From a virus (lineage: Duplodnaviria > Caudoviricetes), in the IMG/VR virus record IMGVR_UViG_3300027759_003166: 64,000 nt of DNA. One strand, written 5' to 3'. The first letter of the stretch is position 1, and the number at the start of each line of letters is the position of its first letter. Position numbers and translations under genes: made by a program. Below are positions 10,766 to 22,510 of this stretch, piece by piece. Below the pieces are notes generated by a model. The model ran no database searches and was not told where the DNA came from. It saw only the letters and a program-made list of their open reading frames with translations.

Positions 10766-12187
10766 TTACAGATCGTAGCGCGGAACTAGTACAGTCTTAC
10801 GCATGATGCCTTCTGGAGTGAATTGTTCAACATCCGCACCTAGCAAGCTAGCCATGATTGCTGGACTAAATCCACTTACAAGAGCGGCACCGCTCTTATC
10901 TGCCGCAACTGGTACGTTACCAGAACTGTTTAGGTTCCAGAAAACAACCTGTGGACAAGTGTATCCGGCTGCTTCAAACTTGCGTTCGATCATTTCCATC
11001 GCACTGTCATCGTGGCGAACACAGGCGTTAAATTGCATGTCGCTCAAGATCAAAACCATTGCTGGCATATCACTTTGAGGAGCATTGCCCTTAACTGCTA
11101 CACTTAGAATCTTTTCAAATGCTGCATGTAGATTTGTGCTCATACCCCAGTCGCTCTTGACCATTTGATTCATCTTTTGGACAATGTCGCCCCGAAGAGT
11201 CATCAATTGTGGCTTGTCACTGAATGTCAAGAAAGTGTCCTTGAACACACCCTTGTTCTTATCAGCCAAGTACAAGCCAAGGCTAACAGAAATATCCATA
11301 CAGGTAACACTACCCTTACCGCCCGCCGCACAACTCATAGAGCCGCTTACGTCTACTAGTGGTAGGATGCTAGCATCTCCAACGTAGTTTGGCAAGGCGT
11401 TCCATTGTGCAGTGATGTGATCCAATTCTGTCTTAGACAAAGTCGGACGCATGTATGCGTAAGCATTAACCAGTCCCTTCAACACATCGTGTGGGAAAAT
11501 AGCGTTAGCATTAACCTTCACACCTGCTTCGCCCTTGACCAGTGCAGCCACGTACTCAGCAAACTTAGGAGTGTGACGTCCAAAAGCCTTCTTGTAGTTA
11601 CGTGATGCCACGCTAGGTACGTGGTTGAAGTTGATGTTGTCCCAGTCATTGGCACACATTTGTGTTTCAACAACCTTGGTCAAAGCCACAAGACTCTTAC
11701 GGTAGAACTTTGGGCTCATACCGAAGAACTCACGGACTTCTGCTGCGATCTTGCCCTTACGTGGAGTCCACTTGGCAGCAAGGCCGTTACGAGCACGTAG
11801 AGCATCGCCCAACATGGTGTAAGCAGCAGCCTTCAATACAGGAGTAGTGAAGACAAAGATGTCATCCCAACGACCTACTTCAGGTACCTTCTTCAGCAAA
11901 GCCAAAGCGGCATCTGGGTCAGTCTTTTCTAGATGTACCAGAATTGAACGGAACAATTCCCGTTCGCCCGCTCCACCACGGACATCACGTGCCCATTGTG
12001 CGATACGTAGAGCCAAGTCGAAGTTTTCAACATAGGCCGCAGTAAATGCGGGTACAATGTTCTTACCACGGCTTGCGCCGATGTTGTAGAACAGATCAAC
12101 ACACTTGTTAGCGGTTGATTCACAAGCCTTCATACCATTAGCGGTACGGGCTTCTTGGTTAGCGATTGCGGTTACGAATGCGTTCAT
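10766..12187 (-). CDS. TROVE/Ro60-like protein with a C-terminal vWA domain (DUF2828 type)
   Basis: ARDVRGGAGER, VGRWDD, AAKWTPR; MIDAS DVSGSM; LILSDMQF; VVFWNL. Confidence 0.85.
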   Translation of the reverse strand: MNAFVTAIANQEARTANGMKACESTANKCVDLFYNIGASRGKNIVPAFTAAYVENFDLALRIAQWARDVRGGAGERELFRSILVHLEKTDPDAALALLKKVPEVGRWDDIFVFTTPVLKAAAYTMLGDALRARNGLAAKWTPRKGKIAAEVREFFGMSPKFYRKSLVALTKVVETQMCANDWDNINFNHVPSVASRNYKKAFGRHTPKFAEYVAALVKGEAGVKVNANAIFPHDVLKGLVNAYAYMRPTLSKTELDHITAQWNALPNYVGDASILPLVDVSGSMSCAAGGKGSVTCMDISVSLGLYLADKNKGVFKDTFLTFSDKPQLMTLRGDIVQKMNQMVKSDWGMSTNLHAAFEKILSVAVKGNAPQSDMPAMVLILSDMQFNACVRHDDSAMEMIERKFEAAGYTCPQVVFWNLNSSGNVPVAADKSGAALVSGFSPAIMASLLGADVEQFTPEGIMRKTVLVPRYDL

Positions 12188-12201
12188 TTTAATTTACCTT
12201 T

Positions 12202-12257
12202 CAGAATGTATTTTATTTTCGATATAATTGAAATATAAGATTGCTGTTAACATTCTA
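12202..12257 (-). ncRNA. Family-A structured RNA A1 (in the vWA 5' UTR)
   Basis: UAGAAUGU/ACAUUCUG stem, UAACAGCAA, AUAU-UUCAAUU-AUAU T-loop hairpin. Confidence 0.65.
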
Positions 12258-12265
12258 TTATTCAA

Positions 12266-12370
12266 CAGGATAGTTGTGCCACTTTTTACTGATGTAGCCA
12301 ACAGTTTGATAGGCTGTGAAGTTATCTCTGCCCATCAGTTCATGTAATATGAGTTGCTGAACCTATCCTA
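12266..12370 (-). ncRNA. Family-A structured RNA A2
   Basis: UAGGAUAG/CUAUCCUG stem, UUCAGCAA, internal ACUGAUG/CAUCAGU helix. Confidence 0.65.
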
Positions 12371-12403
12371 AAACTTACTAACAAGTTTCCTTGCTATGTA
12401 TAT

Positions 12404-12432
12404 ATTGTATAACAAAACTCAAGTCTTGTCAA
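12404..12432 (-). promoter_or_regulatory. Sigma70 promoter for the vWA gene
   Basis: TTGACA-17 bp-TACAAT. Confidence 0.8.
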
Positions 12433-12447
12433 TACAATTTGGAAAAG

Positions 12448-12526
12448 CAGGATACCATTATTTTTGGAATTGAACCAAATATCGCATGAAGCGAATTAAC
12501 CAAAGGTTATTGCTGTTAGTATCCTA
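12448..12526 (-). ncRNA. Family-A structured RNA A3 (cloverleaf-like interior)
   Basis: UAGGAUAC/GUAUCCUG stem, UAACAGCAA, three hairpins including UUUGG-UUCAAUU-CCAAA. Confidence 0.7.
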
Positions 12527-12530
12527 AAAT

Positions 12531-12609
12531 TGGATGCGGAGGATGGATTCGAACCACCGATCTGAAGCTTATGAGACTTCCGGGGACGACCAGACTCCCC
12601 CACTCCGCT
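12531..12609 (-). tRNA. trnM: tRNA-Met(CAU), initiator-like
   Basis: Loop CUCAUAA; 1:72 mismatch; R11:Y24; encoded CCA. Confidence 0.8.
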
Positions 12610-12665
12610 GTATTTGGGACACACTACTTTGCCTATTTTACGCCGTGTGCCATGGCGAGATCTTT

Positions 12666-12926
12666 TTATCCAGTACGGTGGATCAAATGATAACCAAACT
12701 GAGTTTGTACAGGTTGACTAATGGCGCCAATTGGAGTTGCCAATGTAGCATCTTCAAATGGTTTAACCATCATGCCTGGTCCAAAATCTCCAAGGTCTCC
12801 GCCGTTGGCTTTACTAGGACATGAACTATATTTCTGTGCCAATTGACCAAAATTTGAAGTATCGGCTTCGGCCAAAATGGCATGTGCTTGTTCTACTGAA
12901 TTTACTAAAATATGACTTGCTTTCAT
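12666..12926 (-). CDS. ppiC: Parvulin peptidyl-prolyl isomerase (start refined to 12926)
   Basis: MKASHILV...FGQLAQKYSSCPSKANGGDLG.F.PGMMVKPFE...TQFGYHLI. Confidence 0.9.
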   Translation of the reverse strand: MKASHILVNSVEQAHAILAEADTSNFGQLAQKYSSCPSKANGGDLGDFGPGMMVKPFEDATLATPIGAISQPVQTQFGYHLIHRTG

Positions 12927-12946
12927 TTTTTCCTCTTTATAAAAAT

Positions 12947-13020
12947 TGGTCTCGGTAGCAGGAATCGAACCTACGCTCCTGCGTCCCAAACGCAGAGTGA
13001 TACCATTTCACCATACCGAG
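12947..13020 (-). tRNA. trnP: tRNA-Pro(UGG)
   Basis: CUGCG-UUUGGGA-CGCAG anticodon arm, CCA. Confidence 0.95.
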
Positions 13021-13025
13021 AATAA

Positions 13026-13107
13026 ACTGGTGGGCAGGACTTGAACCTGCTTCGTCTTGCGACTACCGAGTATGTTTCAACTCCGCCTTTCCCCTTTCAG
13101 GCCAGTT
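13026..13107 (-). ncRNA. Degenerate tRNA-like element
   Basis: Perfect T arm GCAGG-UUCAAGU-CCUGC, GUC-GCAA-GAC variable arm, 8-nt loop, AACUGG/CCAGUU closing stem; no normal acceptor end. Confidence 0.5.
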
Positions 13108-13348
13108 AATCTTTTTTCTTCCTTAACTTCATTCCAACAAACGTGCCACAAAATGCGCCAAGACATGCTGGAATAAGCAGCATATGATCACTAGTATAGT
13201 TGATTACTGCAATACTTGCAATGAAAAAAACTACCACTGACCATACGCTTGATTTAAGTACTTCATCATTTTGTACTGCTCGTAGATAATATGTATAAAA
13301 CACATCAGTGAAAAACAGTGCGAAAAATGTTGTTATGTATTCAATCAT
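13106..13348 (-). CDS. Small membrane protein
   Basis: Three hydrophobic segments and a basic tail. Confidence 0.7.
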   Translation of the reverse strand: MIEYITTFFALFFTDVFYTYYLRAVQNDEVLKSSVWSVVVFFIASIAVINYTSDHMLLIPACLGAFCGTFVGMKLRKKKD

Positions 13349-13355
13349 AAATGTT

Positions 13356-13431
13356 TGGTAGGACGTGACGGGTTCGAACCGCCGACAGCCTGAATGTAAA
13401 TCAGGAACTCTACCAACTGAGTTAACGTCCT
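13356..13431 (-). tRNA. trnV: tRNA-Val(UAC)
   Basis: CCUGA-UUUACAU-UCAGG, CCA. Confidence 0.95.
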
Positions 13432-13472
13432 ATATTTGGTCTAACTAAAGTTTTATTTAATAAATATTTTCC

Positions 13473-13751
13473 ATGCTACAAAAAAAAGAACGCATACCAT
13501 TAAATCTACGCCGTAGAGTCATTGAACGCGATGGCTTCTATTGTGTCTATTGCGATGATGATCTCCGCGATGGTGAAATACACATGGATCATGTTATTCC
13601 AGAATCTCGTGGAGGCGAAACGTCATACAATAATCTTCAGGTAACTTGTAGAAAATGTAACCTGGCTAAAGGTACATTGTCCGAAGATGAATTTACTCGA
13701 AAGCTCAGAACACGAGCACTAAACATATTGAATAGAATTGGAGCGGGATAG
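13473..13751 (+). CDS. HNH endonuclease, antisense within the tRNA array
   Basis: CVYC...HMDHVIPESRGG....NLQVTCRKCNLAKG; ATAAATA box upstream. Confidence 0.9.
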   Translation: MLQKKERIPLNLRRRVIERDGFYCVYCDDDLRDGEIHMDHVIPESRGGETSYNNLQVTCRKCNLAKGTLSEDEFTRKLRTRALNILNRIGAG

Positions 13752-13812
13752 GAGAATCAAACTCCTGACCGAGGATTGGAAATCCGCTATTTTATCATTA
13801 AACTAATCCCGC
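13739..13812 (-). tRNA. trnG: tRNA-Gly(UCC)
   Basis: Loop UUUCCAA, GCGGGAU acceptor, CCA; T loop UUUGAUU. Confidence 0.85.
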
Positions 13813-13818
13813 ACAAAT

Positions 13819-13962
13819 TGGTGGAGAACATTTTTGAGGTATCCCCTATGAAGCAGATCACTGCTCACCTGTTACATTGCTGTCGTGTACTATTACCTGC
13901 CCTAAGGATTAGGTACCTACCTTAGCGACTCATACCGGCGAACGTAACCTCGCCTCTGTTCC
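13819..13962 (-). ncRNA. 144-nt multi-hairpin RNA ending in CCACCA and containing ACAGCAA
   Basis: GGAACA/UGUUCU and GAGG/CCUC closing helices plus four internal hairpins; begins directly after the tRNA-Thr CCA. Confidence 0.6.
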
Positions 13963-14045
13963 TGGTGCTGGAAGTGAGACTCGAACTCACGGAGGTTTCC
14001 CGACGGCTTACAAAACCGTTGCAATTGCCACTATGCGACTCCAGC
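13963..14045 (-). tRNA. trnT: tRNA-Thr(UGU) with a long variable arm
   Basis: ACGGU-UUUGUAA-GCCGU; 12-nt variable region CGGGAAACCUCC; G1-C72, C2-G71, A73. Confidence 0.8.
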
Positions 14046-14053
14046 TTTATTTA

Positions 14054-14230
14054 CTATCCACCTTGTTCACTATCTCGAACTTGTGATTGTTGTTCTTCAA
14101 CTAACCTAAATGCTTCATCTTCATTTTGAGCATCCTCAACTTCACGCGGATCAGGTTTGCGGAAGATAGCATCATAGTTTGAGCTAAACTTATTCAAGTC
14201 AGTTGGTCGTTGTCTTGAACCTTTGCTCAT
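14054..14230 (-). CDS. Small hypothetical protein (58 aa)
   Basis: Manual translation MSKGSRQRPTDLNKFSSNYDAIFRK...; GGAAGG SD. Confidence 0.65.
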   Translation of the reverse strand: MSKGSRQRPTDLNKFSSNYDAIFRKPDPREVEDAQNEDEAFRLVEEQQSQVRDSEQGG

Positions 14231-14231
14231 A

Positions 14232-14456
14232 TCAACGTACCTTCCTTAGGTAATCACGTCCAATATGTCCTGCTTCAATTTCTTGTAGAGCTGTGACAAT
14301 ATGGCTGTTAGGTGAAATGACCATTTTTCTATTACCACGGCCTTGCTTCAACTCACGTGCTCGAACAGCAGCGATTAAAACTAGATCAAATCTGTTGCCA
14401 ACATTGGCCACACATTTTTCTGTATCCACGGAATTAACAAAATCTGGAGTTTTCAT
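14232..14456 (-). CDS. rpoZ: RNA polymerase omega subunit homolog
   Basis: VGNRFDLVLIAAVRARELKQG...IVTALQEIEAG matches the omega signature. Confidence 0.9.
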   Translation of the reverse strand: MKTPDFVNSVDTEKCVANVGNRFDLVLIAAVRARELKQGRGNRKMVISPNSHIVTALQEIEAGHIGRDYLRKVR

Positions 14457-14629
14457 TATTCACCTCGGTTATTACGTTCTTTGGAACTTTTGACAATGGT
14501 ATTACCCATTACTTGAGATTCGATCATCATGTGACGAAATCCGTCTCGTTGATCTTGATCTTTAAAAGGCATCAAGGCCAGGAAACGTTTAGCCTGTTTA
14601 CTCAAACGAAATGCTGCGTTAGTTTTCAT
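14456..14629 (-). CDS. Small basic hypothetical protein (57 aa)
   Basis: Manual translation MKTNAAFRLSKQAKRFLALMPFKDQDQRDGFRHMMIESQV...; AAGGA SD. Confidence 0.6.
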   Translation of the reverse strand: MKTNAAFRLSKQAKRFLALMPFKDQDQRDGFRHMMIESQVMGNTIVKSSKERNNRGE

Positions 14630-14652
14630 ACTTTCCTTTTATTAAAAAACTT

Positions 14653-14736
14653 TGGTGCCCCAGGTCGGACTCGAACCGACACGCCTTTCGACACGAGCTT
14701 CTAAGGCTCGCATGGCTACCATTACATCACCGGGGC
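14653..14736 (-). tRNA. trnL: tRNA-Leu(UAG)
   Basis: CGAGC-CUUAGAA-GCUCG, long variable arm. Confidence 0.95.
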
Positions 14737-14779
14737 ATACTCTTACTATACAATCTATTTTACAGACTGTCAACTATTA

Positions 14780-14854
14780 TGGTGCGACGTGTTGGGAACG
14801 ATCCAACGGCCAAGAAATTATGAGTTTCCTGCTCTACCACTGAGCTAACGTCGC
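14780..14854 (-). tRNA. tRNA(CAU), elongator Met or Ile2
   Basis: Loop CUCAUAA; atypical T loop AUCGUUC. Confidence 0.8.
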
Positions 14855-14863
14855 ACTATTCTT

Positions 14864-14938
14864 TGGTCCGGCGTGCAGGAATCGAACCCACGTTTAGGGA
14901 GTAGAAATCCCCTGTATTTTCCACTATACGAACGCCAG
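14864..14938 (-). tRNA. trnR: tRNA-Arg(UCU)
   Basis: Loop UUUCUAC, CCA. Confidence 0.9.
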
Positions 14939-14945
14939 GAAATCG

Positions 14946-15033
14946 CATATAGAAACACACTGATGTCCTGTAGCTTTAACAGGCCCTAGACTTTTTCAAG
15001 TCTCGCAGTCACACTTCAATGTATTTTTATATA
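14946..15033 (-). ncRNA. Family-B long-stem RNA B1
   Basis: UAUAUAAAAAUACAUUGA/UCAGUGUGUUUCUAUAUG 18-bp stem; two internal hairpins. Confidence 0.65.
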
Positions 15034-15034
15034 C

Positions 15035-15155
15035 CATATTAAAACATACTCCCAACAAGTGTCTTACGCTTGTTGTACCGTGTGCTATGCACATTCTCCG
15101 TATCAAAGGACTCCCTCGGGTTAGGGCAACATAGACGAAAGTATGTTTTAATATG
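15035..15155 (-). ncRNA. Family-B long-stem RNA B2
   Basis: Perfect 16-bp CAUAUUAAAACAUACU/AGUAUGUUUUAAUAUG stem; three internal hairpins; starts at the tRNA-Leu CCA. Confidence 0.65.
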
Positions 15156-15239
15156 GTGCGACTGGCCGGACTCGAACCGGCACGCCCAAGAGCGAGGGAT
15201 TTTAAATCCCTTGCGGCTACCAAATTACGCCACAGTCGC
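15154..15239 (-). tRNA. trnL: tRNA-Leu(UAA)
   Basis: AGGGA-UUUAAAA-UCCCU, long variable arm. Confidence 0.95.
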
Positions 15240-15292
15240 AAAATACTTTTTAACTTTTAAAGAACAGTGTTAATTGCTTAACGTATGCATAT

Positions 15293-15321
15293 AGTATAAC
15301 ATCATTTACTCTATGTGTCAA
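15293..15321 (-). promoter_or_regulatory. Internal sigma70 promoter followed by a boxA-like sequence
   Basis: TTGACA-17 bp-TATACT; downstream TGTTCTTTAAAA at about 15256-15267. Confidence 0.7.
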
Positions 15322-15322
15322 G

Positions 15323-15396
15323 TGGTTCTCCTAACAAGAATCGAACTTGTAATTGCACTTTACCGAAGTGCTGGTATGCCATTTACCTATAGGAGA
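15323..15396 (-). tRNA. trnT: tRNA-Thr(GGU), atypical C33
   Basis: GCACU-UCGGUAA-AGUGC, C2-G71, CCA. Confidence 0.7.
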
Positions 15397-15400
15397 GTAT

Positions 15401-15475
15401 TGGCGGGCCTTGAGAGGATCGAACTCCCACCCTCGGTTTCGAAGACCGAGATGATATCCATTTCACCAAAGGCCC
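15401..15475 (-). tRNA. trnR: tRNA-Arg(UCG)
   Basis: UCGGU-CUUCGAA-ACCGA. Confidence 0.9.
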
Positions 15476-15551
15476 TGGTGGTAGAGGTGGGACTCGAACC
15501 CACGATCTTTTCCGTATGAAGGAACTGCATTAGCCGCTATGCTACTCTACC
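15476..15551 (-). tRNA. tRNA(CAU), probably Ile2 (lysidine) or Met
   Basis: Loop UUCAUAC, CCA. Confidence 0.8.
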
Positions 15552-15554
15552 ATA

Positions 15555-16217
15555 TTATTTTCTAATACAAATTAGATCACTTTCACCAAAGGGATGCGGA
15601 TCTCTTGTTTTAAGAAATTCTGTTTCAAACCCTTGTTGATGGATCCATGATTCAAGATCACTTTTTGGAGCGTGACCCTTATAGTAAGGTTTTAATGCAG
15701 CTTCTGTATGCATTAGTTTAACATCATCGATGAATTTCCCCATACCTTGCAATGCTTTTAATTCATTACCTTGTACATCCATCCAAACAGCATCTACCTT
15801 ATCGACACCAATTTCTGTTAAAACATCATCTATACGTCTTGCTCTAATGCCGGATAATTTTTGAAAGGTACATGGTCTGTGTCCATTCTGCCATCCTGCA
15901 TCTAAGAAATCCTCTGCTGGTTCTAAAATAGAGGATGCACCAACATTTTCATTAACTATCCAAAAATCTACAATATCTTCTTTATCATTACAGGCATATT
16001 CATATACCTCAATGTTAGGATAATTTTTTCCTGCTGCTACACAAATAGGAAACTGATTAGGATTTGGTTCAAATGCAATTATTCTAGTATTAGGAAATGC
16101 CTCAGACATCTGTACACTTTCTTCTAGGTCTCTGCTACCTACATCTAAAATAACTTGTGGGCCTTGATTTCCATAAATTTCTTTTAGTTGTTCTATAAAA
16201 TCACCTGCTACTGCCAT
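15555..16217 (-). CDS. FkbM family methyltransferase
   Basis: ILDVGS, AFEPNP, VWMDVQGNELKALQG. Confidence 0.85.
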   Translation of the reverse strand: MAVAGDFIEQLKEIYGNQGPQVILDVGSRDLEESVQMSEAFPNTRIIAFEPNPNQFPICVAAGKNYPNIEVYEYACNDKEDIVDFWIVNENVGASSILEPAEDFLDAGWQNGHRPCTFQKLSGIRARRIDDVLTEIGVDKVDAVWMDVQGNELKALQGMGKFIDDVKLMHTEAALKPYYKGHAPKSDLESWIHQQGFETEFLKTRDPHPFGESDLICIRK

Positions 16218-16289
16218 AATATTTCTCCATTAAAAGTTTATTATACTGGATATTATTTAATAGTCAACCGTTATCATAGACTGGGTAAT

Positions 16290-16365
16290 TGGTGCAACCT
16301 CCAGGGATCGAACCTGGGACGCCAAACTCTTCAGGCTTGCGCTCTACCAACTGAGCTAAGGTTGC
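16290..16365 (-). tRNA. trnF: tRNA-Phe(GAA)
   Basis: Loop CUGAAGA, CCA. Confidence 0.95.
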
Positions 16366-16386
16366 AAATTATGTTAGAGAAACAAT

Positions 16387-17007
16387 CTATGCTCTTATAA
16401 GTTTAAAAAATTGATTATCACCGCTATTATGACATCCATCAAAAATAAAATGAGTATTCCAATCACCGATGCGATGACTTACATGTCTATACATTGGGTG
16501 CATATCATAATTGTCTCTATAAGGACAAAGATTTTCTCTATTAATTGCTTCAATAAATTGAAATAAGTATTTTTTAGGAAACGCATATAATGCATCTCCT
16601 ACAAACCGATCATTGGTCCAAAATGGTTCAATTTCTTTAAAAAGGAAATTAAATTTATTATAGTCTATATTCCAAGTGTTAACTGGAGTATTGAAATGAA
16701 TATCATATCTAGTAGCAATAATAAAATCTAAATCTTCGTAGATCAATTCTTCCATACTACGCTTATAGGTAGTACGAATCTGACTTCCTTGATATGGGAT
16801 AATAACAGCCTTAGATGCATTGTAATGCTCTATCATTCCTGTTAGTTCAGGATGTGGATATGTTGTGAGATAAACCCCTGCATTAGGAATAACATTAATA
16901 AGTTTTTCTTTTATGTTATCTTTTGCCAGCTTCCAATCTCGATCAGCTTTGGCTGTTCCTACTGCCTGTCCCCACGCGGCACCTGTTAATACTATTCCTA
17001 TTTTCAT
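16387..17007 (-). CDS. Hypothetical glycosyltransferase-associated protein (MKI.....G...R.D family)
   Basis: Similar to 26457, 27843 and 34551; YDxII..RxD motif. Confidence 0.6.
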   Translation of the reverse strand: MKIGIVLTGAAWGQAVGTAKADRDWKLAKDNIKEKLINVIPNAGVYLTTYPHPELTGMIEHYNASKAVIIPYQGSQIRTTYKRSMEELIYEDLDFIIATRYDIHFNTPVNTWNIDYNKFNFLFKEIEPFWTNDRFVGDALYAFPKKYLFQFIEAINRENLCPYRDNYDMHPMYRHVSHRIGDWNTHFIFDGCHNSGDNQFFKLIRA

Positions 17008-17019
17008 TTATGTTTAATC

Positions 17020-17095
17020 TGGAGCGGGTGATCGGAGTCGAACCGACGACAATCACGTTGGCAACGTGGCGCTCTACCAGCTGAGCTACACCCGC
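17020..17095 (-). tRNA. trnG: tRNA-Gly(GCC)
   Basis: Loop UUGCCAA. Confidence 0.95.
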
Positions 17096-17118
17096 ATAAT
17101 TTTATTTACTATCTTAGT

Positions 17119-17196
17119 TGGAGTGCCGGGTCGGATTTGAACCGACGGTTTGACAGTTTTGCAGACTGTTGCGTTGGGCCTCTCCGCCACCGACAC
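17119..17196 (-). tRNA. trnC: tRNA-Cys(GCA)
   Basis: ACAGU-CUGCAAA-ACUGU, U73. Confidence 0.95.
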
Positions 17197-17203
17197 ACTT
17201 ATT

Positions 17204-17278
17204 TGGCGGGCCGCCTAGGACTCGAACCCAGACTTAACAGATTTGGAATCTGCGGTGCAGCCATTACACTAACGACCC
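17204..17278 (-). tRNA. trnW: tRNA-Trp(CCA)
   Basis: Loop UUCCAAA, G73. Confidence 0.9.
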
Positions 17279-17461
17279 TTTTTTCTTTTGAGGAAGTCCA
17301 CCTTTGGACCACTCTGTATTTTCGTATATTGCTAACTCATCTTTTGATATTCGTTTAGCAATAATACCATTGTTTATTAATATTGTTCCTATATTAGCCT
17401 CTGCTACTAGGGATACATATATTTGTTTTATGCAGGTTCTACAAGAAAATTCTTGTACCAT
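17264..17461 (-). CDS. Hypothetical protein
   Basis: 65-aa ORF with a CxxC motif; overlaps neighbours slightly. Confidence 0.4.
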   Translation of the reverse strand: MVQEFSCRTCIKQIYVSLVAEANIGTILINNGIIAKRISKDELAIYENTEWSKGGLPQKKKGSLV

Positions 17462-18087
17462 TCTGCTTCTGTTAACATTTCAACAATTTTATAATTATTA
17501 TTGTTTATCCAACTGTCAAACTCATTGAGATTTGAATTACTCACTTCTACAAACAATAAAGGTCTACATCTTGCTATAGTATCAGCAAGTCCAATGAGTA
17601 CATCCATTTCCATGCCTTCTACATCAATTTTAATCAAATCAATTTTTTTATTATAAAATAAGGCATCGCCTGGTACTTGAGGAATACCCGATATCATCCC
17701 TTGATCTTTTAAACTTGTTGCACCTAAATTATCGTTAAACATTTCTCGAATGCCTGAAAACCCAAATCTAGAACCCATTGCTAGACCTAGAAAATCTATG
17801 TTAACGGATTTGCAATAATTCAATGCTATATTTTGTAATAGTAATTTATAGCTCTGTGCTATTGGCTCAATGACAATTATTTCTTTTGGATTCAGATACC
17901 AATCAAAAAATATAGTGTGATTACCCACATTTGCCCCAACATCTACAATTGTAAGATCTGGAGGAATATATTTTATTAGTTTATCCAATTCATCTCGTTC
18001 ATAAAATTCACATTTAAGATGATGACGTTGAATAGTATCATTACCATTATCTACCATAAATTTTAATTTTCTCATATATGCTTTCAT
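17428..18087 (-). CDS. FkbM family methyltransferase
   Basis: VDVGANVGNHT, IEP, IKIDVEGMEMDVLIG. Confidence 0.9.
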   Translation of the reverse strand: MKAYMRKLKFMVDNGNDTIQRHHLKCEFYERDELDKLIKYIPPDLTIVDVGANVGNHTIFFDWYLNPKEIIVIEPIAQSYKLLLQNIALNYCKSVNIDFLGLAMGSRFGFSGIREMFNDNLGATSLKDQGMISGIPQVPGDALFYNKKIDLIKIDVEGMEMDVLIGLADTIARCRPLLFVEVSNSNLNEFDSWINNNNYKIVEMLTEAEWYKNFLVEPA

Positions 18088-18092
18088 TTATT

Positions 18093-18182
18093 TGGCGGAA
18101 CGACTGAGACTCGAACTCAGAAACCCTCTTTCGAGAGTCGATGGATTAGCAATCCACTCCAATACCATTATGGGACCGTTCC
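18093..18182 (-). tRNA. trnS: tRNA-Ser(GCU)
   Basis: Loop UUGCUAA, long variable arm, G73. Confidence 0.95.
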
Positions 18183-18190
18183 TTAATTCT

Positions 18191-18303
18191 TGGTGCAACC
18201 GGTAGGTCTCGAACCTACAAAGGCGTTGTCTAGGACTTTGCCCCATCACCGGCTTTTCTTTTCAGAAGAAGCGGCAGGTCTGCCATATTCCACTCACGGT
18301 CGC
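18191..18303 (-). ncRNA. 113-nt tRNA-like RNA without a canonical anticodon loop
   Basis: GCGACCG/CGGUUGC-ACCA acceptor, T arm GUAGG-UUCGAGA-CCUAC, Leu-type D region, extended GAAA-capped hairpin and an extra hairpin. Confidence 0.7.
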
Positions 18304-18318
18304 AAGTATATTATATAC

Positions 18319-19056
18319 TTATTCGCCCGCTGTGTCAACTGATTTTACGTGAGCAAGTTCTTTGTTGATAAAGTCCCAAGCTCTTTGCAGTAACCTCTTG
18401 TAGTGAGGATTATCCGTTTTTTCTGGATATATGTCTGCTATATGTTTAACTTCAAATGCTCTATTTAGATATGCTGTCATTTTTGTTCTAAATGCTGCTG
18501 GATCTAAATGAGACAATTTAGGTATCACTGGCGAGATAAAATGTAATGCTTCAATAAAACGTGCATTAATTTCTGCCGGTTGTGCTCTATAAGCGGTATC
18601 TGGATCTTCCCGATCTGCTGGATTTCTTGCTGTACTATAACGTGTACTTTGATTAGCCCTATCCGACGATTTAAAATCGTCCATGGCGTGTCTTAGTTCG
18701 TGTGCAATAATAGTACGCATACGGTTAGAGGACAAGTAATCAGCATTTAAAGATATTGCCTTTTCTGCAGGATCCCATTCACCTAAGTGTGAGTCTGCTC
18801 CTGTTGCTCGTCCATTTAATCTACGTGCTAGATCTACAATAGCTTCATCTGAGGATATTGCCAAACGTATTCTATCCACGGCAGGAATTGGAGTGTCAAA
18901 TAGATCTCCAATGCGTCCAATATGTATTACGCCTGTTTCATCGTAGTCTAACTCTGTATCAGCGTATTGCTGTAGATAATCGTAGATAGTATCAGCAAGG
19001 CTCATAACAGCACGATCTTCTTCAGCAGTTTCAACTAGTAGTTCATGTATTCGCAT
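18319..19056 (-). CDS. Hypothetical zincin-like protein with an MRIHELLVE leader
   Basis: IIAHELRHAMD (HEXXH) and Y...PAEINAR. Confidence 0.65.
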   Translation of the reverse strand: MRIHELLVETAEEDRAVMSLADTIYDYLQQYADTELDYDETGVIHIGRIGDLFDTPIPAVDRIRLAISSDEAIVDLARRLNGRATGADSHLGEWDPAEKAISLNADYLSSNRMRTIIAHELRHAMDDFKSSDRANQSTRYSTARNPADREDPDTAYRAQPAEINARFIEALHFISPVIPKLSHLDPAAFRTKMTAYLNRAFEVKHIADIYPEKTDNPHYKRLLQRAWDFINKELAHVKSVDTAGE

Positions 19057-19068
19057 CTACTTATTTAG

Positions 19069-19156
19069 TGGAGGAAGATGTGAGATTCGAACTCACGGTC
19101 CCTTTCGAGACGACAGTTTTCAAGACTGTTGGTTTAAACCACTCACCCAATCTTCC
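19069..19156 (-). tRNA. trnS: tRNA-Ser(UGA)
   Basis: ACAGU-CUUGAAA-ACUGU, long variable arm. Confidence 0.95.
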
Positions 19157-19164
19157 TTATGTGT

Positions 19165-19239
19165 TGGTGCGTCCGGATGGAATCGAACCACCATTACTAA
19201 GTTCGTAGCCTAGAGTATTCTCCATTATACTACGGACGC
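19165..19239 (-). tRNA. trnR: tRNA-Arg(ACG)
   Basis: Loop CUACGAA. Confidence 0.9.
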
Positions 19240-19246
19240 TTTAATT

Positions 19247-19320
19247 TGGTCCTCTCGACAAGAATCGAACTTGTAATGACCGGTTATCAGCCGATTGTTA
19301 TACCATTTAACTACAAGAGG
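19247..19320 (-). tRNA. trnI: tRNA-Ile(GAU)
   Basis: Loop CUGAUAA. Confidence 0.9.
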
Positions 19321-19326
19321 ATTTCG

Positions 19327-19405
19327 TGGTTGATTTCATCCTGAGCCACCCACTCTATTATACTATGTATAACGTGGGGCTTTGCTACACGACCAGGATC
19401 TGCTC
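19327..19405 (-). ncRNA. 79-nt long-hairpin RNA candidate ending in CCA
   Basis: AUCCUG/CAGGAU, CCCAC/GUGGG and GUUAUAC/GUAUAAU nested helices between tRNA-His and tRNA-Ile. Confidence 0.4.
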
Positions 19406-19482
19406 TGGGGTAACCAATGGGGAACGATCCCATTCTATCACTTTCACAGAGTGAGGTGCTAAACCTTTACACTATGGTCACC
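19406..19482 (-). tRNA. trnH: tRNA-His(GUG)
   Basis: Loop CUGUGAA, G-1:C73; atypical T loop AUCGUUC. Confidence 0.9.
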
Positions 19483-19576
19483 ATATAAAAATACATTCCA
19501 AAAACTTCCGATTAGTTATGTCGGTCATAACGTTTATACAGGATAACTAATTCCTGCAGGAATGTATTTTTATATA
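19482..19576 (-). ncRNA. Family-B long-stem RNA B3
   Basis: UAUAUAAAAAUACAUUCC/GGAAUGUAUUUUUAUAUG stem; possible internal pseudoknot (UUAGUUAU/AUAACUAA). Confidence 0.65.
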
Positions 19577-19580
19577 ATAC

Positions 19581-19659
19581 CATATAGAAACACATTGCTT
19601 CTGTCTCCAAGGACTTCTGATGGACTAGGTCACAGCCTAGGACAATGTGTTTTTATATG
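19581..19659 (-). ncRNA. Family-B long-stem RNA B4
   Basis: CAUAUAAAAACACAUUG/CAAUGUGUUUCUAUAUG; starts at the tRNA-Lys CCA. Confidence 0.65.
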
Positions 19660-19732
19660 GTAGGGGCACCCGGACTCGAACCGGGATAGATCGGGTAAAA
19701 GCCGACTATTCTAGCCTTTGAATTATACCCCC
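19658..19732 (-). tRNA. trnK: tRNA-Lys(UUU)
   Basis: Loop CUUUUAC. Confidence 0.9.
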
Positions 19733-19735
19733 ATA

Positions 19736-19810
19736 TGGTCCACAGCCCCAGAATCGAACTGGGCTCTCTCGGCTTAAGAGGCCGGACTTCGCCAGCAAAG
19801 TTTGCTGTGG
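19736..19810 (-). tRNA. trnK: tRNA-Lys(CUU), atypical core
   Basis: Loop CUCUUAA; A at position 8; compressed D/anticodon junction. Confidence 0.7.
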
Positions 19811-19872
19811 ATGGATTCGTAAATATTTTCTTTTACGTGCCATCCAGGACCATACGGGGGTCTAGGATGACA

Positions 19873-19896
19873 CTATCGTTTCGCTGAACGTTTCAT
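19873..19896 (-). CDS. 7-aa mini-ORF MKRSAKR
   Basis: AAGGAGA SD upstream; followed by a UGUCAUCC/GGAUGGCA hairpin. Confidence 0.4.
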   Translation of the reverse strand: MKRSAKR

Positions 19897-19908
19897 GTCG
19901 TTCTCCTT

Positions 19909-19971
19909 TTAAAGTTTTCTCATAATAAAATACAGAGCACAAAATATAATTACTATCAATAGTAAGACCAT
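19909..19971 (-). CDS. 20-aa hydrophobic peptide MVLLLIVIIFCALYFIMRKL
   Basis: AAGGAG SD; single TM segment plus basic tail. Confidence 0.5.
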   Translation of the reverse strand: MVLLLIVIIFCALYFIMRKL

Positions 19972-19991
19972 AATATGCTCCTTGGTGTGGT

Positions 19992-20066
19992 TGGCAGGGA
20001 CTGAAGGTAACGCTCCTTCTCACCCAGTTTCAAAGACTGGTATCTGCTCTTATCGATTTAATCCCT
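19992..20066 (-). tRNA. trnQ: tRNA-Gln(UUG), atypical
   Basis: CCAGU-CUUUGAA-ACUGG, G73; T loop AGCGUUA, A8. Confidence 0.75.
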
Positions 20067-20162
20067 ATGTTATCTAACTCTTGTTTTGTTAATACAGATA
20101 TTTTTAATTCCGGATGTTGAGTTATTTCCCCTGCCAAACAACACAATGCCCCAACAATAAAA

Positions 20163-20218
20163 CAGGATGCTTATTTTTCAATTAAAAGTTGAATTTAAAA
20201 TTTGCTGTTCGCATCCTA
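20163..20218 (-). ncRNA. Family-A structured RNA A4
   Basis: UAGGAUGC/GCAUCCUG, GAACAGCAA, UUAAA-UUCAACU-UUUAA. Confidence 0.7.
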
Positions 20219-20222
20219 AAAG

Positions 20223-20297
20223 TGGCTCCCTCGGGAAGGATCGAACTTCCGACCAATTGGTTAACAGCCAACTGCTCTACCTCTGAGCTACAAGGGA
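20223..20297 (-). tRNA. trnN: tRNA-Asn(GUU)
   Basis: Loop CUGUUAA, G73. Confidence 0.95.
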
Positions 20298-20305
20298 ATA
20301 ATAAA

Positions 20306-20516
20306 TTTGTAAGTAGTTCCGCCCATATTATCGGAACCATTCACCTTATTATACAAGGCCGGCAAGGTCTCGGTACGTTACTTGGGAGTCCTCCAAATGA
20401 TACGCCAATTGTATACTAGTCTTCCGACCAGCCGGGCATCGAACCCGCATCCTTTTACTGTTTCAGTTGTTCGAACGAACCTAGACAGCGTGACTTCTCT
20501 TGCTAACACTTACAAA
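20306..20516 (-). ncRNA. YrlA-like Y RNA candidate (211 nt) with a permuted tRNA-mimic domain
   Basis: UUUGUAAGU/ACUUACAAA terminal stem; T arm, then loop-closed acceptor stem, then D arm at 20398-20448. Confidence 0.65.
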
Positions 20517-20519
20517 ACT

Positions 20520-20594
20520 TGGAGTCGCATACGGGTTTCGATCCCGTCTAGTCACCTTGAAAGGGTGATGACCTCGCCAGAAGTCTAATGCGAC
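20520..20594 (-). tRNA. trnE: tRNA-Glu(UUC)
   Basis: UCACC-CUUUCAA-GGUGA; T loop AUCGAAA. Confidence 0.85.
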
Positions 20595-20603
20595 ATAATA
20601 AAA

Positions 20604-20663
20604 CAGGATAGCATTTTTTTTCATTAACGTTGAAAGTTTTTTGAGTTTGCTGTTGCTATCCTA
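20604..20663 (-). ncRNA. Family-A structured RNA A5
   Basis: UAGGAUAGC/GCUAUCCUG, AACAGCAA, AAC-UUUCAAC-GUU hairpin. Confidence 0.7.
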
Positions 20664-20668
20664 AAACT

Positions 20669-20715
20669 TGGTGGATAACAGATGCCGACCGTAAGGTATA
20701 AGCACCCGCTTCTCC
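20669..20715 (-). ncRNA. 47-nt minihelix-like RNA with an ACCA end
   Basis: GGAGAA/UUAUCC-ACCA plus GGGUGC/GCAUCU helix; no D or T arm. Confidence 0.45.
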
Positions 20716-20721
20716 ATAATT

Positions 20722-20798
20722 TGGCGCCCCGGACGGGAATCGAACCCGTGACCTCAACCGTGACAGGGTTGCGTGATAAACCGCTACACTACCGGAGC
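20722..20798 (-). tRNA. trnD: tRNA-Asp(GUC)
   Basis: CAACC-CUGUCAC-GGUUG, G73. Confidence 0.95.
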
Positions 20799-20804
20799 TA
20801 AACT

Positions 20805-20880
20805 TGGTGGAGGATAACGGATTCGAACCGTTTGCTCCTGGTTGCAAACCAGGTGTGTTAGCCAAGTATACCAATCCCCC
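20805..20880 (-). tRNA. trnA: tRNA-Ala(UGC)
   Basis: Loop UUUGCAA, G3-U70. Confidence 0.95.
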
Positions 20881-20885
20881 GAATA

Positions 20886-20971
20886 TGGTGGAGGCGGATG
20901 GATTCGAACCACCGTGCTTTTTACGGGCAAGATTTACAGTCTTGTGCAATCAACCTCTCTGCCACGCCTCC
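20886..20971 (-). tRNA. trnY: tRNA-Tyr(GUA)
   Basis: CAAGA-CUGUAAA-UCUUG, long variable arm. Confidence 0.95.
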
Positions 20972-20979
20972 AAAATTGT

Positions 20980-21035
20980 TACACACTCCCGCTACGCTTT
21001 TTGACGCGATTCAAAGTCGCGAAAGAGAATGTGTA
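20980..21035 (-). ncRNA. Family-B-like short element B6
   Basis: UACACAUUCUC/GGGAGUGUGUA 11-bp stem with a CGCGA/UCGCG hairpin inside. Confidence 0.45.
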
Positions 21036-21135
21036 TATTAAAACATACTAATGAAATTGCACTACCTCAGTTTCACGCTGAGTTACCAGTAGTCACGGAG
21101 GCATTGTCCTCCTGCAAATAGTATGCTTTAATATG
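21034..21135 (-). ncRNA. Family-B long-stem RNA B5
   Basis: CAUAUUAAAGCAUACUA/UAGUAUGUUUUAAUAUA; internal GGAGG/CCUCC, ACUAC/GUAGU and CUCAG/CUGAG helices. Confidence 0.65.
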
Positions 21136-21239
21136 ACGAATTTTTTTATCTACAAGAAGATAATCCATCCTCGTCACCGCCCGTTTACCCCATGTTTATA
21201 GTGCAGGGTGTGGTCCTCGTTACCACATATTCACACTCG

Positions 21240-21274
21240 AAAAGCAAAAACCCCAGGGTGTTTAGTCCTAGGGT
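21240..21274 (-). terminator. Attenuator terminator upstream of the tRNA operon
   Basis: ACCCUAGG/CCUGGGGU stem followed by UUUUGCUUUU. Confidence 0.8.
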
Positions 21275-21299
21275 CCTTTGGAGTTAGTGTGTAGTTGTA

Positions 21300-21443
21300 T
21301 TACACTCTGGTCTCCTGGGACCCCTGGCTAATATAGCCCTCTGGTGTGCGATCATTAGATAGACTATCAAACGCCAACCAGCATGAGGGCATCTGCCCTA
21401 ATTTGGCTATCGTATGTTTATAGTTTCTAACTGCTGATTGCAT
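21300..21443 (-). CDS. 47-aa leader peptide containing all 20 amino acids
   Basis: MQSAVRNYKHTIAKLGQMPSCWLAFDSLSNDRTPEGYISQGSQETRV; codons 39-42 are complementary to the terminator 5' strand. Confidence 0.7.
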   Translation of the reverse strand: MQSAVRNYKHTIAKLGQMPSCWLAFDSLSNDRTPEGYISQGSQETRV

Positions 21444-21500
21444 TTTACTTTCCAATTTACCTTTAAATTACTACACGGCATTATTGCTGTGTATGTATGA

Positions 21501-21529
21501 ATTATACATTTATTTAGCCTCGCTGTCAA
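21501..21529 (-). promoter_or_regulatory. Proximal sigma70 promoter of the tRNA operon
   Basis: TTGACA-17 bp-TATAAT, followed by ACATACACAGCAA. Confidence 0.9.
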
Positions 21530-21585
21530 CCTGTTTTTGCCTTTTTGAACAAAATATTTTGACTTTGTTGCTGTGTATGTGACTA

Positions 21586-21614
21586 ATTGTATAGTGATTG
21601 TGTTACCCTGTCAA
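21586..21614 (-). promoter_or_regulatory. Distal sigma70 promoter of the tRNA operon
   Basis: TTGACA-17 bp-TACAAT, followed by ACATACACAGCAA. Confidence 0.85.
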
Positions 21615-21724
21615 CTAGTTTGTTGTATTTTTACAACAGAAGATTTGTCCAAACTGTGTTTCAGTTCTTGACTTTGTTAGGGCAACTGTGTTTAAATAAG
21701 TGCTACTATAACTATAAGGAACGT

Positions 21725-22510
21725 ATGGCAAGAGACCTACTAGTAATTTTACGTAGCTGTACCATTGTACACGCTGCCAGCAACTCAACCAGATACATCA
21801 ATGTTTCTAAACACGAATTAGTCAAACACTGTATCAGCAGTTTGGTTAATAGCATCAATCAAGTAACTAATCATAATATTCGACTAGTTGTCTTAGATGA
21901 TCATAGCAGCCCCGAAGCTGTAGATGATATTAAAACCATAATTGGGCATTGTAAGTTTCCCACAGAATTTATACCTGTGTTAGATGGAACAGGCAATGGA
22001 CATACAATGAAATGTGTCTATGATCAGGTAGAACAGAATTGTACAGATCTATGGTATCACATTGAAGATGACTATCTACACGTACCAGAGGCTATTCAAG
22101 ATATGATCGATTCGGTGGATCAATTTGAATCCAACACAGGTAAATTAGTTGCTATTAATCCTCACGATGACATATGGAGGTATACAAAACAAATTTATCA
22201 TAGTATACTGTTACTTGGTCCATACAGACATTATAGGACAGTTCAACATACTACCTATACTTGTTTGGCCAGCCGTAACCTGTATAATCGTTACCGTAAT
22301 ATTTTCCAAGATTTGGTTAAACTTACTATTAACAAGGAAGGTTGGGTCGAGGACCGGTCAATAAATCAAATTTGGCAACAACCAGATGTTATGTTATTCA
22401 GTCCAATACCTGGTCTAGGATTTCATATTATGGATGAAAGCGGCAAGGATCCTTATTTTGATATTGACGCATTATGGAACAGTGTTCCTAAACTATGGAG
22501 AAAAGAATGA
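21725..22510 (+). CDS. GT-A fold glycosyltransferase (start refined to 21725)
   Basis: VVLDDHSS, GNG, YHIEDDYLH; AAGGA SD. Confidence 0.8.
   Translation: MARDLLVILRSCTIVHAASNSTRYINVSKHELVKHCISSLVNSINQVTNHNIRLVVLDDHSSPEAVDDIKTIIGHCKFPTEFIPVLDGTGNGHTMKCVYDQVEQNCTDLWYHIEDDYLHVPEAIQDMIDSVDQFESNTGKLVAINPHDDIWRYTKQIYHSILLLGPYRHYRTVQHTTYTCLASRNLYNRYRNIFQDLVKLTINKEGWVEDRSINQIWQQPDVMLFSPIPGLGFHIMDESGKDPYFDIDALWNSVPKLWRKE

Follow-up and report, generated by a model that had tools for sequence, protein, structure and literature searches.

The transfer RNA (tRNA) array of an uncultured phage holds, besides its tRNA genes, six small structured elements whose ends pair in a near-invariant AU-rich stem and whose interiors are mutually unrelated. 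The window, meaning the whole stretch of 64,000 nucleotides (nt) analyzed here, is the virus record IMGVR_UViG_3300027759_003166 (Duplodnaviria; Caudoviricetes), and ARAGORN recognizes in it 28 tRNA genes, on the minus strand throughout, which span 12.5-21.0 kilobases (kb). The elements, named B1 to B6, are encoded on the same strand and belong to a family present in at least 242 loci of viral contigs. According to the best-supported reading, which we hold with slightly more belief than doubt, these are genes of small RNAs that would be released by tRNA processing, protected from exonucleases by the stem that clamps their ends, and equipped with an exchangeable payload.

The six elements form three tandem pairs. 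B2-B1 extend from tRNA-Leu(UAA) (15154..15239, minus strand) to tRNA-Arg(UCU), B4-B3 from tRNA-Lys(UUU) (19658..19732, minus strand) to tRNA-His (19406..19481, minus strand), and B5-B6 precede tRNA-Tyr. B2 (15033..15157, minus strand) has a closing stem of 20 base pairs (bp), ACCAUAUUAAAACAUACUUU / GGGAGUAUGUUUUAAUAUGGU, around an 85-nt payload of multiple hairpins, with a minimum free energy of -43.8 kcal/mol and a z-score of -5.2. Its first A, at 15154, is also the terminal A76 of tRNA-Leu(UAA), and position 19658 has the same double role for B4 (19579..19661, minus strand) and tRNA-Lys(UUU). In both cases the 3' ACCA of the tRNA provides the first pairs of the stem, with the ACC ahead of the first A pairing with a GGU beyond the 3' arm. 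The closing stem of B4 carries an A.C mismatch, which recurs at position 6 in the stem of B1 (14945..15034, minus strand) together with three U.G pairs; the 3' end of B1 lies 6 nt short of tRNA-Arg(UCU). B3 (19482..19576, minus strand) is closed by a perfect AU-rich stem of 17 bp, in which the final pair involves G-1 of tRNA-His (19482). B5 (21033..21137, minus strand) opens the array and is preceded by no tRNA; its stem, AUAUUAAAGCAUACUA / UAGUAUGUUUUAAUAU, contains a G.U pair at position 9. B5 is abutted by B6 (20981..21034, minus strand), a shorter relative that lies 9 nt ahead of tRNA-Tyr and keeps the inner half of the handle only (ACACAUU/AGUGUGU; ACACAUUCUC / GGGAGUGUGU).

With up to one mismatch allowed, the arm motif ATATWAAARCAYAY has exactly 10 matches in the 64 kb, which are the five arm pairs of B1 to B5. 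All six elements fold with paired ends, with z-scores from -3.4 to -6.5, and none of 200 shuffled sequences folds equally well. Most tRNAs in the same arrays are spaced by 5-10 nt and have no such stem between them. This anatomy bears out a sequence-only reading of the same DNA, which had placed six elements at these positions on the tRNA strand, with B2 and B4 beginning inside the CCA of the preceding tRNA, B3 ending at G-1 of tRNA-His, and B6 as a shorter relative. The A.C mismatch common to B1 and B4 and the G.U nature of the remaining non-Watson-Crick pairs on the minus strand had been described there as well.

The same reading depended on the stem being kept in relatives, and it is kept widely. 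Viral contigs were scanned with the pattern ATATWAAARYAYAY, a gap, and RTGTRTTTYWATAT, with gaps of 35-65 nt and then of 66-96 nt. Each of the two scans yielded at least 120 loci, so that the family-wide counts given here refer to the matches listed and are lower bounds. The pooled set comprises at least 242 loci with 3,646 tRNA genes and at least 359 distinct elements, all of them inside tRNA arrays and on the tRNA strand, with the consensus (A)CC-AUAUAAAAACACAUU, payload, AGUGUGUUUCUAUAU-GG(U). Tandem pairing, in turn, holds for B2-B1, B4-B3, and B5-B6 but is not a rule of the family, since 15 of the 359 elements lie within 12 nt behind another one. In 596 gigabases of prokaryote genomes the two-arm pattern gives 13 matches, against at least 120 loci per viral scan, so chance accounts for almost none of the viral matches. 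Six of these 13 are tRNA-rich fragments binned into metagenome-assembled genomes, mostly from fresh water, and are probably phage; the other seven look like chance matches in AT-rich DNA.

The sequencing runs that contain parts of the window are mostly freshwater or lake metagenomes. Five complete genomes of 100-364 kb carry the element, with 1-4 copies as the usual number and a single one in most, which puts the six of the window at the high end. The proteins common to the five are the T4-type core only (gp46/47-like proteins, T4 RNase H, UvsW, and lysis genes, with PhoH in four of the five). From these core genes and the origin of the runs, the carriers are taken to be uncultured T4-type phages, mostly of fresh water.

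The stem-clamped family is apparently undescribed. Rfam, searched over the window region at E<=1, gives nothing on the window elements, and for 14 related loci at the gathering score it gives only tRNA, transfer-messenger RNA (tmRNA), and GOLLD among the 150 of 329 matches listed. Megablast and blastn searches of GenBank phages with the region, with B4, and with B2+B1 return a match to tRNA-Asn only, or nothing, and the region is missing from the nearest virus record (G001). No description of the family was found in the literature searched for the arm sequence, tRNA arrays, T4 stable RNAs, and GOLLD.

Conservation of the stem reflects selection on RNA. Pair types were counted with a strand-symmetric anchor pattern, and because this anchor reads alike on both strands, the count cannot favor either of them. 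At positions 9, 10, 12, and 14 combined, G.U or U.G wobbles occur 294 times on the tRNA strand, versus two cases of A.C or C.A. On the opposite strand those 294 wobbles would become mismatches, which locates the selection in the RNA of the tRNA strand, as the sequence-only reading had proposed from the window elements. Position 14 is U.G in 205 elements, C-G in 66, and U-A in 36, and position 5 covaries fully (A-U in 195, U-A in 97, and G-C in 13). At position 6 a non-Watson-Crick pair is clearly preferred, with A.C in 176 of 309 elements and mostly A-U or G-C in the rest, besides a few C.A, C-C, and U-U. The pattern is unchanged when each of the 223 payload classes is represented only once. 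Since the two bases ahead of the first A form C-G pairs in 83-86% of the classes, the helix takes in the CC of the preceding CCA and reaches 17-20 bp. Nine positions of the stem are nearly invariant, a conservation that exceeds what pairing alone needs, and left and right arms differ from each other consistently at two positions. Two loci (L362 and L372) have a variant handle with a compensated change of the outer half (UUUAUCUUGAAGCACACU / AGUGUGUUUCAAAAUAAA), and three others (L175, L380, and L305) have near-empty handles in which the payload is a 7-12-nt loop alone.

The link to tRNA ends proposed for the window is also found in the family. In 191 of the 359 elements the first base is exactly A76 of a tRNA, and 75 further elements are preceded by the CC of another RNA-like sequence; overall, the helix begins on A76 and takes in the CC of the CCA in about 80% of elements. 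The rule at the 3' side is looser than that at the 5' side: 51 of the first 200 elements stop 1 nt short of a tRNA, with tRNA-Met and tRNA-His as the most frequent. At the 5' side, the choice of tRNA departs strongly from random. Lys(UUU), the commonest upstream neighbor of the family, accounts for 99 of the abutting cases, Glu(UUC) for 26, and Gln(UUG) for 25, which together make up 79% of these cases and 13.5% of the tRNAs in the loci. Seen from the tRNA genes, an element follows 58% of those for Lys(UUU), 15-17% of those for Glu(UUC) and Gln(UUG), and 0% of those for Pro, Asp, His, Asn, Cys, Trp, and Lys(CUU). As many as 73 payload classes are found behind Lys(UUU), and 24 of the 68 multi-member classes are found behind two or more tRNA species.

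Other RNAs of the arrays can take the place of the upstream tRNA. GOLLD (RF02032, 189-225 bits) is present, among the matches listed, in five of the 14 related arrays (L204, L185, L226, L231, and L177), and in four of these five the GOLLD 3' end is followed after a few bases by a clamp element or by a variant handle (AUUCUAAAACACAUU). In L226, the start is directly on the final CCACCA of GOLLD. A different arrangement is seen in L331 and L314, where a genuine tRNA-His is enclosed between the leader and trailer strands of an AU-rich helix of 11-13 bp that begins directly behind the CCA of tRNA-Lys(UUU). The sequence of this helix is unlike that of the B handle, and its layout is alike.

What the stem encloses is extremely diverse, in agreement with the earlier idea of a common handle with a variable payload. 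The interiors fall into 223 BLAST classes on one clamp, and as 155 of these are singletons, the payload pool is not exhausted. Within classes, stems change in a compensatory manner and loops and junctions are fixed. Examples are class 0, with 10 members, and class 1, with 8 members and a covarying T-stem; the payload class of B1 recurs in L015 and L065 with compensatory changes, and that of B3 in L078. One theme that recurs among them is the T-arm of tRNAs. The T-loop word GGTTC is found in 22 of 123 classes versus 5.6 expected, and a complete canonical T-arm, GGTTC(G/A)ANTCC, in 22 of the 223 classes (about 10%). In about half of the elements bearing a T-loop-like motif, 7-10 nt separate the end of this motif from the 3' arm, so that the T-arm would be stacked on the clamp in the way it is on an acceptor stem. 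No anticodon loops of Lys, Glu, or Gln are seen among the commoner predicted 7-nt payload loops. The suggestion that the payloads may act as guides was not borne out in the window: their longest complementarity to either of its strands is 8-12 nt, equal to that of shuffled payloads. Scaffolds or decoys, the other roles suggested there, may still apply, and mimics of the tRNA T-arm are carried by a subset of the payloads.

The payloads behave like cassettes. Elements of the same class share on average 89% identity across loci, versus 60% for their 80-nt flanks, and of the 58 element pairs that are at least 95% identical, 43 have both flanks below 80%. B4 itself matches an element behind tRNA-Glu in L121 with 100% identity over 84 nt; in that locus, the sole tRNA that aligns with the window is 83% identical. 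With an element in L053, B4 shares 98% identity. The converse is seen as well: of 18 locus pairs in which both flanks reach 88% identity or more, 14 have unrelated payloads, including L062 and L091, where the flanks are 100% identical on both sides. Contigs from the runs X18 and X19 part from the window sequence at the inner edges of their arms, and one X18 contig, with flanks about 92% identical to the window, retains both arms of B5 around a different 30-nt interior. Identical payloads between divergent flanks, unrelated payloads between identical flanks, and contigs that break at the arms show that payloads are swapped at fixed sites bounded by the arms. Such replacement is what homologous recombination between conserved arms would give, and this process could also help to keep the handle uniform. 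The tRNA-Lys bias might then have a non-functional cause, as new payloads would land at already existing handles. Parts of the window are also present in three RNA runs, as assembled contigs that cover small shares of it and are uninformative on ends, strand, and expression level.

From this architecture we infer a route by which the RNAs could be released and stabilized. B1 to B6 would encode small RNAs of the phage, about 70-150 nt long, as parts of the polycistronic tRNA precursor, and the ends of each RNA would pair as an AU-rich clamp of 17-20 bp that starts at the (A)CCA 3' terminus of the preceding RNA gene. The AU-rich stretch just past the CCA is the kind of site at which ribonuclease (RNase) E of Escherichia coli separates tRNAs, and an RNase E-type cut could thus fall at the start of the 5' arm, at or just past A76. 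Bacterial RNase P favors a U at -1, and its cut at the next tRNA would leave this U on the element. A special nuclease would be unneeded, because an RNase E-like site after A76 and RNase P at the next tRNA suffice. Both termini would then be locked in the clamp with an overhang of at most one base, which may protect them from exonucleases, and the clamp would let the payload fold apart from its tRNA neighbors. The near-invariant stem, with its A.C at position 6 and its U.G at position 14, may present a recognition surface for some factor; alternatively, it might be uniform as a homology arm in recombination. The payloads would be the variable and selectable part, swapped as cassettes at fixed sites, chiefly behind tRNA-Lys(UUU).

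Several points weigh against this proposal. The evidence from RNA libraries consists of assembled contigs only, which may contain DNA, and no partner of the handle was found among the proteins shared by the five complete genomes, which are the T4-type core only. A leader that is paired up to -1 could slow RNase P. Given the existence of near-empty handles, the clamp itself may have some role, and the bias towards Lys, Glu, and Gln is unexplained by the model, although a few ancestral sites may have been reused by recombination.

Some of these points lead to a reading in which the element serves the tRNA before it. It would be a cis-acting 3' trailer that protects the ACCA, times its maturation, or insulates its folding, and the interior would be a compact filler that is tolerated. 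We regard this as unlikely, even though it accounts for the exact start of the helix on A76 and its inclusion of the CC in most elements, for the strong preference for Lys(UUU) and, to a lesser degree, Glu(UUC) and Gln(UUG) over tRNA species that are never followed by an element, and for the near-empty handles. The tRNA-His of L331 and L314, within a comparable AU-rich helix directly behind the CCA of tRNA-Lys, fits it too. A filler is not expected, on the other hand, to keep invariant unpaired blocks and covarying stems within payload classes, to be found identical in divergent contexts, or to occur in over a third of the multi-member classes (24 of 68) behind two or more tRNA species, and B1, B3, B5, and B6, being second in tandem or at the array head, have no tRNA upstream to serve. 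Less probable again is that the stem is a processing site for host RNase III, in the style of ribosomal RNA operons, with a cut in the middle of the helix that would leave the payload as a by-product or a short-stemmed hairpin. With its ACC/GGU extension the helix has 17-20 bp, which is close to the minimal size of a substrate of E. coli RNase III, and the conserved internal mismatch could set or limit the site of cleavage. RNase III sites are normally not so conserved in sequence, however, and exact abutment to A76 and to the +1 of the next tRNA would be superfluous with a cut in mid-helix; in addition, most tRNAs of the arrays lie 5-10 nt apart and lack such a stem, and no phage RNase III was found in 23 element-bearing records.

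The exchange of payloads raises the question of whether selection sees the element as DNA, with the arms as terminal inverted repeats like those of miniature inverted-repeat transposable elements, or as target or recombination sites of, for example, HNH endonucleases. Identical elements in divergent genomes and unrelated payloads between identical flanks would be expected of such an element, terminal inverted repeats are present, the arms differ consistently at two positions like the left and right inverted repeats (IRL/IRR) of transposons, and HNH genes are frequent neighbors. Nevertheless, this explanation is very unlikely. The wobble pairs are strand-specific (294 versus 2) and the orientation with respect to tRNA transcription is constant; instead of a target-site duplication, the flanks show a complementary C upstream and G downstream, which are not direct repeats. 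The six interiors of the window are unrelated rather than near-identical copies, complete genomes hold 1-4 elements, no transposase was seen, and the interior helices covary. DNA exchange mediated by the arms is compatible with processed, clamped small RNAs and is part of that favored reading. The explanation to which we give the least credit is that the elements are Y RNAs of a putative Ro60-like protein with DUF2828 and DUF7788 domains, encoded in the window at 10766-12187. The architecture is alike, with a conserved end helix containing a non-Watson-Crick feature, a variable module, and several paralogues, and the gene lies within 3 kb of the array and is also found in 11 of 123 loci. Against it, the protein is absent from 18 of the 23 long records and from all five complete genomes, in which TROVE is likewise found in none, and a cmscan search with RF02553 (YrlA) at E<=1 over 12000-22500 gives as its sole match one of 26 bits (gathering score 69) that falls on two tRNAs. 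As a general explanation, the Y-RNA reading is therefore largely refuted.

The Ro60-like protein was considered as a partner in its own right. It is a 473-amino-acid (aa) protein (10766-12187, minus strand) encoded beside the array, assigned to phrog_850 ("RNA-binding protein"), and its homologues in the 11 related loci share 63-89% identity. As a general partner of the clamp it was rejected on account of the same 18 of 23 long element-bearing records that do not encode it, among them each of the five with a completeness of at least 94%. TROVE (PF05731) was found in none of the five complete element-bearing genomes, with control genomes detected by the same search, and the T4-type core common to these genomes includes no candidate for binding the handle. 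Another gene, for a YkuK-like protein with an RNase H fold (PF04308), lies 1-3.5 kb from an element in four of the five complete genomes (G016:145646-146077; G013:148289-148723; G019:26043-26474; G014:91176-91607) and is also represented in the loci L303-L381. Among 79 PF04308 loci, 77 have tRNA arrays, and the element is found in 43 of those 77. Since the gene is tied to tRNA arrays generally and is missing from the 364-kb genome, it is a candidate only. YkuK (PF04308) is biochemically uncharacterised (PMC3985635).

A more far-reaching proposal concerns the purpose of the payloads. The several hundred RNAs displayed on the clamp, in fixed slots behind tRNA-Lys(UUU), tRNA-Glu(UUC), and tRNA-Gln(UUG), might be a library of counter-defense or host-takeover RNAs that freshwater T4-type phages share and swap by recombination. 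We put this forward tentatively and consider it rather improbable as it stands. The payloads would be under diversifying selection, with many of them mimicking parts of tRNAs, and the clamp would be a handle for stability and recognition as well as a homology arm. The host counterparts of these three tRNAs, with U-rich anticodons, include tRNA-Lys, which is cleaved by anticodon nucleases such as PrrC. If true, the library would be the RNA counterpart of the islands of anti-defense protein genes known in phages.

The arrays hold further features of interest beyond the clamp family. In the window, tRNA-Ser(GCU) is closely preceded by an RNA (18191-18303, minus strand) that resembles a tRNA but is not called by ARAGORN: its acceptor stem (GCGACCG/CGGUUGC) has 7 bp, its ACCA is encoded, and its T-arm, GUAGGUUCGAGACCUAC, is canonical, but a normal anticodon arm is lacking. 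A non-coding stretch between tRNA-Glu and tRNA-Asn (20298-20520, minus strand) contains the T-arm-like sequence GCGGGUUCGAUGCCCGG and is 81-94% identical to stretches in L118 and L121, where little else aligns; it is probably another conserved array RNA. Two hairpin elements (20160-20222 and 20597-20668, minus strand) share the motif (A)ACAGCAAA, each of them followed by GUUUUAUU. The open reading frames of the array, all on the minus strand, encode two FkbM-type methyltransferases (15555-16217 and 17428-18087), a 245-aa protein with an HExxH-like motif, HELRH (18319-19056), and a small protein similar to RNA polymerase Rpb6/omega (14232-14456). Related arrays (L118, L121, and L226) include tmRNA genes, detected by ARAGORN and, in L226, also by Rfam as a permuted tmRNA.

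In a sample of 77 tRNA arrays drawn without regard to the element, 43 contain it, which makes the clamp a very common array component. The clear sequence rules that it follows, namely a universal clamp, a start on the CCA, a tRNA preference, and payload exchange, make it experimentally tractable: the short conserved stem could be used as bait in the search for a partner, and the payloads come in hundreds of natural variants that can be compared with each other. If the payloads act in trans, they would constitute a large and fast-evolving RNA toolkit of phages; if they are inactive in trans, the clamp would be an unrecognised way to organise and process polycistronic tRNA transcripts. The clamp may also find use as a natural scaffold in the expression of stable small RNAs.

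The tRNA islands of phages already hold enigmatic RNAs, such as species 1 and 2 of T4, GOLLD, and ROOL, to which the clamp family is now added. We did not find described in any of the systems compared here a universal clamp begun on the upstream CCA, a preference for three tRNAs, or a large library of exchanged payloads. GOLLD and ROOL (RF02032; bioRxiv 10.1101/2024.12.08.627333) share with the B elements their niche, the tRNA islands of lake phages, and GOLLD has been found to assemble into cages (bioRxiv 10.1101/2024.12.08.627333). GOLLD is a single conserved family, with matches here of about 460 nt, in contrast to the small B elements with one short stem and hundreds of unrelated interiors. 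The Y RNAs of bacteria and phages (YrlA/YrlB, RF02553) combine a conserved end stem bearing a non-Watson-Crick feature with variable modules that partly mimic tRNAs, and have several paralogues per genome. The B elements differ from them in the sequence of the stem and in abutting tRNA ends, and all five complete genomes that carry the element are without Ro/TROVE.

Small RNAs derived from the region directly 3' of a tRNA are also known from other organisms, as is the case of 3'ETS-leuZ from E. coli and the tRNA-microRNA-encoded RNAs (TMERs) from murine gammaherpesvirus 68. Their 5' end is set by processing of the tRNA 3' end, and TMERs consist of one or two tandem hairpins behind a tRNA-like unit. 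Contrary to the B elements, they are not known to have a universal closing stem or a library of exchangeable payloads, and they belong to other organisms and downstream pathways. The nearest precedent of the clamp family is the rnaD/rnaC pair of T4. The RNAs of rnaC and rnaD (species 1 and species 2, with 139 and 119 nt) are non-tRNA RNAs of the T4 tRNA cluster, a niche like that of the B elements, and they form a tandem pair that begins 1 nt past the CCA of tRNA-Arg, much as the B elements lie directly behind tRNA 3' ends. However, they have no AU-rich clamp and no sequence similarity to the family, their folds differ, with short predicted closing stems, and rnaD has a free ACCA end. To our knowledge, no cassette diversity and no function are known for either of them. 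The likeness is closest in rnaC, which has paired ends and a canonical T-arm beside its 3' strand, as is found in the payload classes with a T-arm.

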